The position numbers and the translations under genes were made by a program. From Candidatus Omnitrophota bacterium (lineage in GTDB: Bacteria > Omnitrophota > Gorgyraeia > Gygaellales > Profunditerraquicolaceae): a DNA stretch of 62,979 nucleotides. The DNA lies in assembly GCA_026416665.1 (NCBI GenBank), contig JAOAET010000057.1, positions 1 to 62,979 on the forward strand. Reading direction: 5' to 3'. Shown here piece by piece: positions 3,581-62,790 of this stretch. Each line of letters opens with the position of its first letter. Position 1 is the stretch's first letter. The notes below the pieces were generated by a model, which was not told the origin of the DNA, did no database searches, and saw only the letters and a list, made by a program, of their open reading frames with translations.

Positions 3581-3587
3581 TATTTAC

Positions 3588-3776
3588 AATCTTCGGGGCA
3601 GGGTGAAATTCCCGACCGGCGGTAAAAGCAAAATAGTAAGCTTGAAGCCCGCAAGCTAGCCGGTGGCTAGCAGATACCGGTGAGATACCGGAGCCGATGG
3701 TTTGCAAAGGTACTTTTATAAAAAAGTTCTTTGCAGACACCTTGAAAGAGGTGTATAGTCCAGATGGGAGAAGAGA
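3588..3776 (+). ncRNA. FMN riboswitch (RFN element) with an insert in the P6 loop
   Basis: TCTTCGGGGCAGGGTGAAATTCCCGACCGGCGGT...AGCCCGC...GCAGA..CCGGTGAGATACCGGAGCCGA...AGTCCAGATGGGAGAAGA; upstream of ribBA. Confidence 0.95.
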
Positions 3777-3791
3777 AAAAAGGACATTTCT

Positions 3792-39270: not shown

Positions 39271-39648
39271 TTGAAAAAGAAATTTGACAAGAAAGAACTG
39301 CAGGAATTTAAAAAACTTCTGTTACATCAGAAAGAGACATTGCTTGATTCTCTTGAACACAGCGCCCAGGATACCAAGACCTCTCCTAAAGACGCCTCAG
39401 GGGATATCTCAAGTTATACCTTTCATATGGCAGATGTTGCTACAGACACCTACGACCGCGAATTTGCTATTGGTATGGCCTCTAATGAACGACAACTTTT
39501 GTATGAGATTGAAGATGCTCTAAAACGCATTGAGGACGGAACATATGGTATATGTGAAGAATGTGCCAATCTTATATCTGTAGCCAGACTAAAAGCGCTA
39601 CCTTATGCCCGTTTGTGTTTAAGTTGTCAAGAGAAGAAAGAACGCTAA
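39271..39648 (+). CDS. TraR/DksA-family C4 zinc-finger regulator
   Basis: HMADVATD coiled-coil tip, GTYGICEEC..RL.ALP.A.LC..C; TTG start after AAAGGAAG. Confidence 0.9.
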   Translation: MKKKFDKKELQEFKKLLLHQKETLLDSLEHSAQDTKTSPKDASGDISSYTFHMADVATDTYDREFAIGMASNERQLLYEIEDALKRIEDGTYGICEECANLISVARLKALPYARLCLSCQEKKER

Positions 39649-55837: not shown

Positions 55838-57039
55838 GTACATATCAATACACCGCAAAAGACAGAAACGGTCGTTCAGTAATTGGGGTTATTGAGGCAA
55901 CCAATGAGCAGGAGGCAGTGGTTGCTTTACAAAATAAGATGTTGGTGGTTATTTCTATTAAGAGTATAAAAACCAAAGGAATAAAAACAGCAACCAAAGG
56001 GAAAATAAAACTTGATGACCTGGTAGTATTTTCTCGTCAATTGGCTACAATGATTGATTCAGGTATACCTCTTGTTCAGGCATTAGGAATACTTTCAGAG
56101 CAGGTTGAAAATAAAAGTCTAAGAGAAGTAGTGGTTACTTGTCGTCAGGATATTGAAGCAGGGATGAGTTTTTGTGATGCGCTCTCTAAACATCCTGCAG
56201 TTTTTTCTGAGCTTTTTATAAATATGAGTAGGGCAGGCGAGGCTTCTGGTATGCTGGATGAGGTTTTAGATAGATTGGCTACATACTTAGAAAAGAGTGC
56301 AGCATTACAACGCAAGATTCAATCGAGTTTAATCTATCCAGCAGTAGTTGTATCTATGGCAATTTTGATAACCACAGTTTTACTTTTAAAAGTTGTCCCT
56401 ACCTTTGAAGGAATTTTCGCGATGCTGGGAGGAACATTACCTTTACCTACCCGTATTCTTATTGGAATAAGCAAAATTTTTAGACGGTATTTTCTCTTTG
56501 TAGTTGTTGGTTTTGTAGTAGGAGGATATATTTTTAGACGTTATGTTGATACTCCTAAAGGAAGATACAAGTTTGACCAGTATTTATTGAAGTTACCTAT
56601 ATTAGGAGAACTTTTTCAGAAAGTAGCAGTAGCTAAATTTGCACGAACATTTTCTACATTGGTTAAAAGCGGTGTGTCGGTATTAAATGCTTTAGAAATT
56701 GTTGCAAAGACTTCGGGTAATAAAGTAATAGAGGAAGCAATTAATAATGCACGCACAGCAGTGCGTCAAGGTGAATCTATTTCAGAGCCTCTTTCACGCA
56801 GTAAAGTCTTTCCACCTATTGTTTGTCGAATGGTTGGGGTAGGTGAGCAGACAGGACAGCTGGAAAAAATGCTTTCAAAGATTGCAGATTTTTATGACGA
56901 ACAAGTGGATGCGGCAGTAGCTGGGTTAACGAGTCTAATTGAGCCATTAGTTATTGCTTTTCTGGGAATTGTTATTGGAGGAATTGTCATTGCTTTGTTT
57001 TTGCCTATTTTTAAAATCACTGAACTTATTGCTAAGTAA
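55834..57039 (+). CDS. pilC: Type IV pilus platform protein PilC/GspF
   Basis: FSRQLATMI.SG, AGEASG.L, YP, LPLPT, GEQTGQL, IEP, LFLPIF. Confidence 0.93.
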   Translation: MSTYQYTAKDRNGRSVIGVIEATNEQEAVVALQNKMLVVISIKSIKTKGIKTATKGKIKLDDLVVFSRQLATMIDSGIPLVQALGILSEQVENKSLREVVVTCRQDIEAGMSFCDALSKHPAVFSELFINMSRAGEASGMLDEVLDRLATYLEKSAALQRKIQSSLIYPAVVVSMAILITTVLLLKVVPTFEGIFAMLGGTLPLPTRILIGISKIFRRYFLFVVVGFVVGGYIFRRYVDTPKGRYKFDQYLLKLPILGELFQKVAVAKFARTFSTLVKSGVSVLNALEIVAKTSGNKVIEEAINNARTAVRQGESISEPLSRSKVFPPIVCRMVGVGEQTGQLEKMLSKIADFYDEQVDAAVAGLTSLIEPLVIAFLGIVIGGIVIALFLPIFKITELIAK

Positions 57040-57073
57040 TTTTATAATAAGTAAAGTTTTGTTATGAAAATTA

Positions 57074-57197
57074 TTGACTATATCAGAAATTGTGCTAAAC
57101 TTATTCTATAATATTTAACGTGTAAAAAAATCTTGACAAAAAGGTTTAATTGCGCTATAAATAAAAATCTTGACAAAACAATATTTTGCAGTATACT
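57074..57197 (+). promoter_or_regulatory. Three tandem rRNA operon promoters
   Basis: TTGACT-16-TAAACT (57074), TTGACA-17-TATAAA (57133), TTGACA-16-TATACT (57170). AAAAATCTTGACAAAA is duplicated at 57126 and 57163. Confidence 0.8.
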
Positions 57198-57204
57198 TAT
57201 ATTT

Positions 57205-57213
57205 TGTGGATAA
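57205..57213 (-). promoter_or_regulatory. Perfect DnaA box
   Basis: TGTGGATAA = TTATCCACA on the minus strand, at the predicted +1 of the third promoter; single copy. Confidence 0.45.
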
Positions 57214-57281
57214 GATAAGACTAAGGGTATTGACAATTTAGTTCAATGATGAGTTCCGACGCTTGACGCCAAAATAAAAAT

Positions 57282-57322
57282 AACGGCGTCCCAGTAGTGT
57301 CGGGACGCCGTTTTATCTTTTT
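57282..57322 (+). terminator. Intrinsic terminator within the rRNA leader
   Basis: 11-bp stem AACGGCGTCCC/GGGACGCCGTT followed by TTATCTTTTT. Confidence 0.8.
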
Positions 57323-57370
57323 AAAGGTGTAAGCGGTTTCAAGAAATAAATTTCAAAGTAGAAAATAAAA

Positions 57371-57382
57371 TGCTCTTTGAAA
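57371..57382 (+). promoter_or_regulatory. rrn leader boxA antitermination element
   Basis: TGCTCTTTGAAA. Confidence 0.85.
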
Positions 57383-57387
57383 ATTTG

Positions 57388-57399
57388 GATAGCCAAGTG
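57388..57399 (+). other. 5' arm of the 16S processing stem
   Basis: GATAGCCAAGTG is the exact complement of CACTTGGCTATC at 59132-59143. Confidence 0.8.
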
Positions 57400-57451
57400 A
57401 TTCATAAGAGGTATATGTAAATCAAGAGCCTTAATCAAGACTTCTCAAAAT

Positions 57452-59032
<1,581 letters not shown>

Positions 59033-59303
59033 AAATCTTTTTGCCTCTTTTAAGATTTTTAGATAGCTAGGAAGGCGTGGAAGTAATTGACTTCCAAAAT
59101 GCGACTAGCAACAAGTCTGCTGTAAAGCAGACACTTGGCTATCTTAAAAATTTATTGGAGTCTCTTGAGGCGCTCTCAAACAGCGGGCGAGGGATTCCGA
59201 TTTATTGTGTAAGATGTAAATACAGGGTAATGAATCAGGGCATTACACCGAACTCTTTTCAAAAATTAGAAAAGGGTATTAGTAACTGACTGCACTGTAA
59301 TTC

Positions 59304-59556: not shown

Positions 59557-59568
59557 TGCTCTTTGACA
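59557..59568 (+). promoter_or_regulatory. Spacer boxA
   Basis: TGCTCTTTGACA upstream of 23S. Confidence 0.85.
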
Positions 59569-59582
59569 ACTTCATAATAAAG
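59566..59582 (+). other. 5' arm of the 23S processing stem
   Basis: ACAACTTCATAATAAAG is the exact complement of CTTTATTATGAAGTTGT at 62606-62622. Confidence 0.8.
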
Positions 59583-62757: not shown

Positions 62758-62790
62758 ACCCGCTATTTTTATATAGCGGGTTTTCTTTTT
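62758..62790 (+). terminator. rRNA operon terminator
   Basis: ACCCGCTAT/ATAGCGGGT stem followed by TTTCTTTTT. Confidence 0.88.

Follow-up and report, generated by a model that had tools for sequence, protein, structure and literature searches.

The window analysed here is the whole stretch of 62,979 nucleotides of contig JAOAET010000057.1 of a Candidatus Omnitrophota bacterium (GCA_026416665.1). It carries the only rrn operon and the single rrn leader of the assembly (1.61 Mb in 59 contigs, 93.55% complete, 36.2% G+C). Reading of positions 56400–58200 places the end of the upstream gene at 57039, 5′ of the rrn promoters. The 16S rRNA gene is followed by tRNA-Ile, tRNA-Ala, a second boxA in the 16S–23S spacer (59557–59569), 23S and 5S. 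The features used in this study are as follows.

39538–39645, plus strand: DksA/TraR-type zinc-finger domain in a 130-codon open frame (domain search).
57133–57161, plus strand: rrn promoter TTGACA-N17-TATAAA (direct sequence reading).
57170–57197, plus strand: rrn promoter TTGACA-N16-TATACT (promoter scan, 11 of 12 matches; predicted start at about 57204–57208).
57198–57228, plus strand: 5′ A-rich segment with GTGG(A) (consensus GTGAA, A-rich), possibly forming a variable hairpin (conserved alignment columns).
57229–57250, plus strand: leader motif S, consensus ATTGACAAATTTGGGTAGTTAAT, present as the divergent ATTGACAATTTAGTTCAATGAT in the window (most conserved alignment columns).
57254–57263, plus strand: predicted antiterminator strand A1, TTCCGACGCT, partner AGTGTCGGGA at 57296–57305 (sequence, RNAfold, 81–85% paired in relatives).
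57265–57270, plus strand: predicted antiterminator strand A2, GACGCC, partner GGCGTC at 57285–57290 (sequence, RNAfold, covarying pairs 147–185 and 150–182 of the model-based alignment).
57282–57312, plus strand: predicted terminator hairpin of 11 bp, 8 of them G-C, with a 9-nt loop (sequence reading, hairpin scans; helix 93–95% paired in relatives).
57313–57322, plus strand: terminator U tract TTTTATCTTTTT (sequence reading).
57371–57383, plus strand: boxA TGCTCTTTGAAAA (sequence reading; boxA-like core in 110 of 111 leaders).
57387–57399, plus strand: 5′ strand of the 16S processing stem, partner 59132–59144 (13 pairs, one G-U).
57452–59028, plus strand: 16S rRNA gene (RF00177, 1475.6 bits).
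62758–62790, plus strand: rrn operon terminator after 5S, a 9-bp hairpin ACCCGCTAT/ATAGCGGGT followed by TTTCTTTTT (sequence reading).

An earlier, sequence-only reading of this DNA had counted three rrn promoters. Two of them (57133–57161 and 57170–57197) are credible, but the third, a TTGACA at 57230, is followed by no −10 element and coincides with the conserved leader motif. The promoter at 57133–57161 is missing from the promoter scan because the scan rule requires the second hexamer to end in T. On the plus strand between 57322 and 57452 the scan detected no promoter-like site, which agrees with the earlier remark that no good promoter lies 3′ of the terminator, and in many relatives there is no room for one. 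A TTGAC[AT]-N16-18-TAnnnT pattern occurs at most 260 nt upstream of motif S in 97 of 111 related leaders, and a −35/−10 pair stands directly before GTGA in only 12 of them; the window has the latter arrangement. Motif S is predicted to be transcribed because the promoters lie upstream of it. The motif had also not been recognised as a known family. The Rfam 15 scan bears this out: nothing relevant was found in 57000–57470, either at the gathering score or at E values up to 10, and neither the T-box model nor any other leader family had a match in the leader. In another part of the window, an FMN riboswitch was found at 3585–3779 on the plus strand (RF00050, 82.5 bits, above the gathering score).

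Relatives were collected using the first 449 nt of the 16S rRNA gene as query, which was found in 130 of 201 genomes of the same Omnitrophota order. The closest of these 130 sequences was 89% identical over the 449 nt, and the relatives are therefore different genera. The 460 nt upstream of each 16S start were taken as the leader set (30 loci and 100 regions, 130 leaders in total). BLAST with the window leader detected no alignable leader outside its own genome. A simple scan, which required a perfect-stem GC-rich hairpin followed by at least five T in 9 nt, recorded a TTGACA-like word 42–114 nt upstream of such a terminator-type hairpin in 123 of the 130 leaders; among the seven missed, five have the hairpin by eye (L005, L073, L095, L110 and L129) and two are atypical (L017 and L058). 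A stricter filter retained 113 leaders, two doubtful rows (L098 and L115) were dropped, and the remaining 111 were aligned with MAFFT; this alignment was fitted to no structure. A covariance model of the motif helix and the terminator was run on 100 of the 130 loci. Its 93 matches, one of which is a weak second match in L068, yielded a model-based alignment that was fitted to the terminator and not to the antiterminator.

The leaders of the order share one arrangement of parts. From the 5′ end these are the promoter or promoters, GTGAA with the A-rich segment, ATTGACAAATTTGGGTAGTTAAT, CCGAC, a few nucleotides, GGCGC or GACGC, often TA(A/G)ATTT, then GCGTCCCGAC, a loop, GTCGGGACGC and the T tract, followed by optional extra hairpins, boxA and AATAGCCAAGC. 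The window copy is a divergent member, with a score (64.9 bits) that is low among the 93 model matches and a motif lacking GGGTAG. The sequence-only reading had suggested comparing rrn leaders of related genomes; across the order, both of its helices proved to be conserved and to covary.

The hairpin at 57282–57292 (AACGGCGTCCC) and 57302–57312 (GGGACGCCGTT), with the U-rich tract behind it, is present exactly as first described, and it is conserved and covarying. The perfect stem measures 7–16 bp across the 111 leaders and at least 10 bp in 89 of them. The 9 nt that follow the hairpin contain five to eight T in every leader, as the scan required, and seven or eight in 74. In the MAFFT alignment, the terminator helix is 93.3% paired (33–46% in slid controls), compensatory changes affect 10 of 10 pairs, and none of 500 shuffles reaches the observed values; in the model-based alignment, the helix is 94.7% paired. 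A hairpin weaker than that of the leader (9 bp, 62758–62790) lies at the end of the rrn operon, so the genome appears to use such terminators. Canonical terminators are rare in this genome, being found at 9 of 1003 ends of open reading frames of at least 200 codons vs 1 of 1004 mid-frame windows. Counting both strands, the 1.6-Mb genome has 49 strong terminator sites. The leader hairpin ranks with the most G-C-rich of them, and no second copy of its sequence was found elsewhere in the genome. On the minus strand, positions 57282–57312 form the same hairpin followed by ATTTTTATTT, the sole terminator-like site listed by the scan that was also used for the promoters. Such a two-way terminator seems peculiar to this genome because the sequence 5′ of the hairpin is insufficiently A-rich in relatives.

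The boxA core follows the hairpin within 15 nt in 33 of the 111 leaders and within 30 nt in 42. In these 42 leaders no promoter fits between the two, and rRNA transcripts must cross the hairpin. As far as can be judged from promoter patterns and spacing, the hairpin is inside the transcribed leader, between the promoters and 16S, with no bypass promoter. The rrn boxA is given as 5′-UGCUCUUUA-3′, and rrn antitermination is reported, in the available text of the same source, for Rho-dependent terminators only (PMC2724277). With boxA downstream of the hairpin and antitermination limited to Rho in that account, boxA would not be expected to carry transcription past the hairpin.

The mutually exclusive antiterminator proposed earlier, in which 57254–57263 pairs with 57296–57305 and 57265–57270 with 57285–57290, was exact in its coordinates and is the minimum-energy form in RNAfold. 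For 57204–57325 this form has −36.3 kcal/mol (z −3.45), and 1 of 200 shuffles was as good. The two helices are 81.3% and 81.7% paired in the MAFFT alignment, where the whole given structure is 78.6% paired vs 28–45% when slid. The model-based alignment gives 80.7% for the antiterminator vs 27.8–50.5% for slid versions, with both-side changes in 12 of 12 pairs; out of 500 shuffles, none equals the observed value in four of the five measures, and 6 do so in the remaining one. Column 185 of this alignment, in the 5′ arm, is shared, since its partner is column 211 in the terminator and column 147 in the antiterminator. Where column 185 is C, column 147 is G in 40 leaders and A in 3; where it is U, column 147 is A in 27 and G in 19. 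This three-way covariation is significant by Fisher's test (1.3e-7), and columns 150 and 182 behave alike (1.7e-7), both tests ignoring kinship. The pair types G-C, A-U and G-U are spread over 30, 21 and 12 genera, respectively. A tree-based covariation test counted just one independent pair on branches with support, of which a tree of such short leaders has almost none. By mutual information the terminator pairs rank first, two antiterminator pairs fall in the top 30, and no further helix was detected across the leaders. On the evidence of these alignments, both predicted helices are more than chance.

Folding energies describe how the two states would compete. When the last 6 nt of the 3′ arm were removed, 102 of 111 leaders had the inner helix, 85 the outer helix and 84 both helices in their minimum-energy structures, and the truncated transcripts had a mean z of −1.88 vs shuffled upstream strands. 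Among full-length leaders, 101 of 111 have the terminator in their minimum-energy structure, and its advantage exceeds 3 kcal/mol in 103 (mean −6.8). So widespread a bias suggests that the antiterminator is stabilised by some factor or profits from a co-transcriptional head start. The window copy has the strongest antiterminator of the 111 leaders and is the single case in which that form is the more stable, by 4.4 kcal/mol; read-through may therefore be largely constitutive here. Native upstream strands bind their own hairpins at a mean of −16.8 kcal/mol and same-type hairpins of other species at −13.7 kcal/mol, and upstream strands of the other hairpin type bind far less well (−9.1 kcal/mol). 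Pairing, covariation and energies together indicate that the predicted antiterminator is real, yet the weaker state in most species.

In the MAFFT alignment and in a further alignment of the leaders, TTGACA and the bases that follow it are the most conserved columns of the whole element. The sequence-only reading had placed a sensor here, namely a hairpin ATTGA/TCAAT whose loop TTAGT pairs with ACTAA as a pseudoknot. A corresponding helix (ATTGAC/GTTAAT) does exist in relatives, with a conserved G-U (84 G-U and 6 G-C of 111), but in the MAFFT alignment it is 69–77% paired with little covariation, and the 27-nt motif region folds no better than shuffles (mean z 0.01). The pseudoknot is possible in the window, but 26.2% of its cells are paired across the 93 aligned leaders, which equals shuffles. 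Pairing of the 5′ end with the antiterminator strand was not conserved, and a P1-like extension of the motif S helix that would sequester strand A1 (42–62% paired) was rejected. The proposed sensor anatomy was, as judged from the relatives, wrong in detail, whereas the observation of the two competing structures is sound and much more general than the sequence-only reading could show.

Other candidates in the 5′ part were also rejected. The 35 nt upstream of the motif carry a modest hairpin signal (mean z −0.85, below −1 in 50 of 111 leaders) whose register varies, and a fixed-register hairpin around GTGAA was 58.8% paired, no better than shuffles or slides. Pairing of the A-rich segment with the U tract reached −6.44 kcal/mol natively vs −6.24 kcal/mol with permuted partners. 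A six-codon frame, ATG ATG AGT TCC GAC GCT TGA (57247–57267), was considered as a leader peptide, and its ATG has no counterpart in the consensus of relatives. Mimicry of, or pairing with, the organism's own rRNA operon was dismissed because leader scores lie within the shuffle range. RNAalifold found no consensus structure in the 5′ part, the terminator alone appearing. The leaders contain no detectable anti-antiterminator in cis or supported aptamer helix, and the covariation-supported structured aptamer expected of a riboswitch was not found in the leader alignments. Motif quality is weakly linked to the terminator advantage (Spearman −0.25, p 0.007, ignoring kinship), which is a hint at most. 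A conserved and largely unstructured sequence beside a switch is easier to reconcile with a protein or another trans factor than with a metabolite aptamer, and we infer that such a factor, rather than a classical metabolite ligand, may act at the motif.

Outside the order the evidence is thinner. The covariance model matched 8 of 151 genomes sampled across the phylum, all in the family of the window (7 of 9 there and 0 of 141 elsewhere under strict filters). In most of the 27 leaders taken from other orders of the class, boxA is preceded by another hairpin that is just as well conserved (GGCATCG-loop-CGATGCC plus a T tract); a scan placed a hairpin within 130 nt before boxA in 19 of them, and a regular expression recovered the GGCATC type in 16. 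The motif TTGACAAATTTGGGTAG is also present in some of these leaders. A strict S-like pattern (TTGA[CT]A, 4–6 nt, GG[GAT]T[AG]) occurs in 11 of the 27, about three of which resemble promoter −35 sites, and its background in the window's own genome is 0.005 per 460 nt. An upstream strand around GAGGATG can pair with the top of the GGCATC-type hairpin and seems by eye to track changes in the loop; this pairing is weak (mean z −1.09; native −8.96 vs −7.32 kcal/mol permuted). The 20 leaders from other classes are different again: a hairpin and T run precede boxA in 6, and no credible motif S was found in any of them.

The exact 19-mer of the motif has 11 matches in 185,579 species genomes. Five are in other phyla and have no hairpin and no 16S nearby; from the remaining six, the two inspected (L285 and L288) both carry the full element upstream of 16S. 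The exact-motif records L285, L286 and L289 are titled 'uncultured Planctomycetales', and other such records Candidatus Omnitrophota. As L285 carries the full element, the Planctomycetales label looks like a difference in taxonomy assignment. A loose pattern (TTGACA...CGYCCCR...YGGGRCGYTTT) gave, among the matches listed, mostly records from unrelated phyla, including many from Acidobacteriota, and these were taken as chance matches in G+C-rich genomes. The picture suggested by these comparisons is a conserved recognition element whose expression platform has been exchanged between orders. Riboswitch-like devices evolve through such exchange of expression platforms.

The genomic context of stringent control was also surveyed. 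The RelA_SpoT domain (PF04607) was not found in the window's own genome, and of 151 phylum genomes with a completeness of 90% or more, only 16 contain a match (13 above the cut-off). Of the 16 matches, ten fall within open frames of 2,128 to 39,687 codons and not within ordinary genes of RelA/SpoT size. Rho is present, on another contig. This setting makes post-initiation control of rRNA attractive but proves nothing.

We propose that 57198–57322 attenuates transcription of the only rRNA operon in cis, from within its leader, and assign this reading a probability of roughly 60%. That termination occurs here, and that it is regulated, we infer from the two structures, their conservation and covariation, their place in the leader and the lack of a bypass promoter. 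Transcripts from the tandem promoters would first make the 5′ domain, consisting of the A-rich segment and the motif TTGACAAATTTGGGTAG. Strands A1 and A2 would emerge next; their possible partners in the following hairpin are the loop-distal 3′ arm and the base of the 5′ arm. Should the antiterminator persist until the polymerase has passed the U tract, transcription would run on through boxA and the processing stem to 16S; should the GC-rich hairpin of 11 bp form in its place, transcription would stop after about 115 nt. The greater stability of the terminator suggests that read-through depends on the kinetic head start of the antiterminator or on a trans factor, most likely a protein recognising the motif or the antiterminator. 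The output of rRNA would then be set after initiation. A default-off stop before the most heavily transcribed operon looks costly, which counts against the attenuator. A further step would be that the 5′ motif and the antiterminator together sense a growth-state signal, carried by a small molecule or by a dedicated RNA-binding protein. The leader would then be the first post-initiation switch of a bacterial rRNA operon and a stand-in for stringent control; this is speculative and seems to us unlikely.

Several other explanations were weighed against the attenuator. The hairpin sits directly upstream of boxA, where the boxB stem-loop of E. coli rrn is found (PMC2724277), and a hairpin with a T run before boxA, seen in 19 of 27 leaders of the class and 6 of 20 of other classes, may be a general rrn feature of the phylum. 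It could accordingly be a structural leader element, a pause site or a folding aid in 16S assembly, with no appreciable termination in vivo and an alternative pairing that guides co-transcriptional folding. We consider this doubtful: a stem of 7–16 bp with 5–8 U in 9 nt is a canonical intrinsic terminator, stronger than the operon's own end; boxB is reported as dispensable for rrn antitermination in the text available (PMC2724277); and a pure boxB role leaves the covarying competitor helix unexplained. With its strong promoters, conserved 5′ motif and strong terminator, the leader also resembles a small-RNA gene, and the motif is conserved as primary sequence, like a seed region. The main product would then be a short, stable leader RNA of about 115 nt that acts in trans and tracks rrn promoter activity, with rRNA coming from the read-through fraction. 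In five relatives, motif S occurs once per genome, and near-matches on either strand, including extra or complementary sites, appear at the control rate; complementarity between the leader and its own rrn operon does not exceed that of shuffles. Such a product would by itself leave the antiterminator unexplained. It is compatible with an attenuator rather than exclusive of it, and as the main function it appears quite improbable.

An element acting in DNA was also considered, with TTGACAAATTTGGGTAG serving as a third promoter, or as the operator of a roadblock repressor, and the hairpin ending transcripts from upstream. TTGACA is the sigma-70 −35 consensus, and the motif shows sequence conservation but no supported RNA helix. 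However, no −10-like hexamer lies 16–18 nt downstream in the window or in the consensus of relatives, and the motif is not palindromic. Across the 111 leaders, the motif G faces U in 84 cases and C in 6; a G-U wobble has meaning only in RNA and therefore counts against a role in DNA, which we regard as very improbable indeed.

Control of rRNA synthesis is understood to act almost entirely at initiation (ppGpp/DksA and the initiating NTP) and through Nus/boxA protection from Rho, and we know of no other case of post-initiation gating of rRNA synthesis. If the attenuator reading is true, a post-initiation gate would be added to the most heavily transcribed operon of the cell in more than 100 species. 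It would offer a concrete, testable answer to how ribosomes are matched to growth in an uncultivated, small-genome phylum that mostly has no recognisable RelA/SpoT. The element is short, so templates and compensatory mutants for in vitro transcription are easy to build.

A full-text literature search yielded, among the papers listed, no description of a terminator–antiterminator element in an rrn leader. Kingston and Chamberlin (1981) reportedly observed pausing and attenuation in vitro in the E. coli rrnB leader; their case is said to be pause-based, without a canonical terminator/antiterminator pair, and it shares with ours the idea of a post-initiation limit on rRNA transcription in the leader. 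The boxB-boxA-boxC region of E. coli rrn likewise lies just after the rrn promoters, with a stem-loop directly before a consensus boxA, and the second boxA in the 16S–23S spacer adds to the likeness with the antitermination region of that species. In contrast to boxB, the Omnitrophota stem-loop has a full U tract and a covarying competitor helix, and as it lies upstream of boxA, the Nus complex should be unable to act on it. The closest formal parallels are terminator/antiterminator attenuators, comprising riboswitch platforms, T-box leaders and protein-controlled leaders such as trp-TRAP, rplJL-L10(L12)4 and the Bacillus subtilis infC-L20 system (PMC3064811, PMC4538822, PMC1865079). In these, too, the 5′ leader contains a GC-rich hairpin with a U tract, preceded by a strand that can capture part of the terminator in a mutually exclusive helix, and a conserved element lies farther 5′. 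They control mRNA, whereas the Omnitrophota element precedes an rRNA operon and has no supported aptamer and, in the Rfam scan, no known protein-binding motif or matching family. The rimP-leader of the rimP-nusA-infB operon is also a leader terminator with a highly conserved stem in a translation-related operon; a protein such as NusA has been proposed to act on it (Naville and Gautheret 2010, PMC2965389). No antiterminator is visible in the rimP-leader as described in the available text of that paper (PMC2965389), whereas the Omnitrophota leader has a predicted one, and conservation of its stem can be explained by the double pairing constraint that the two helices would impose.
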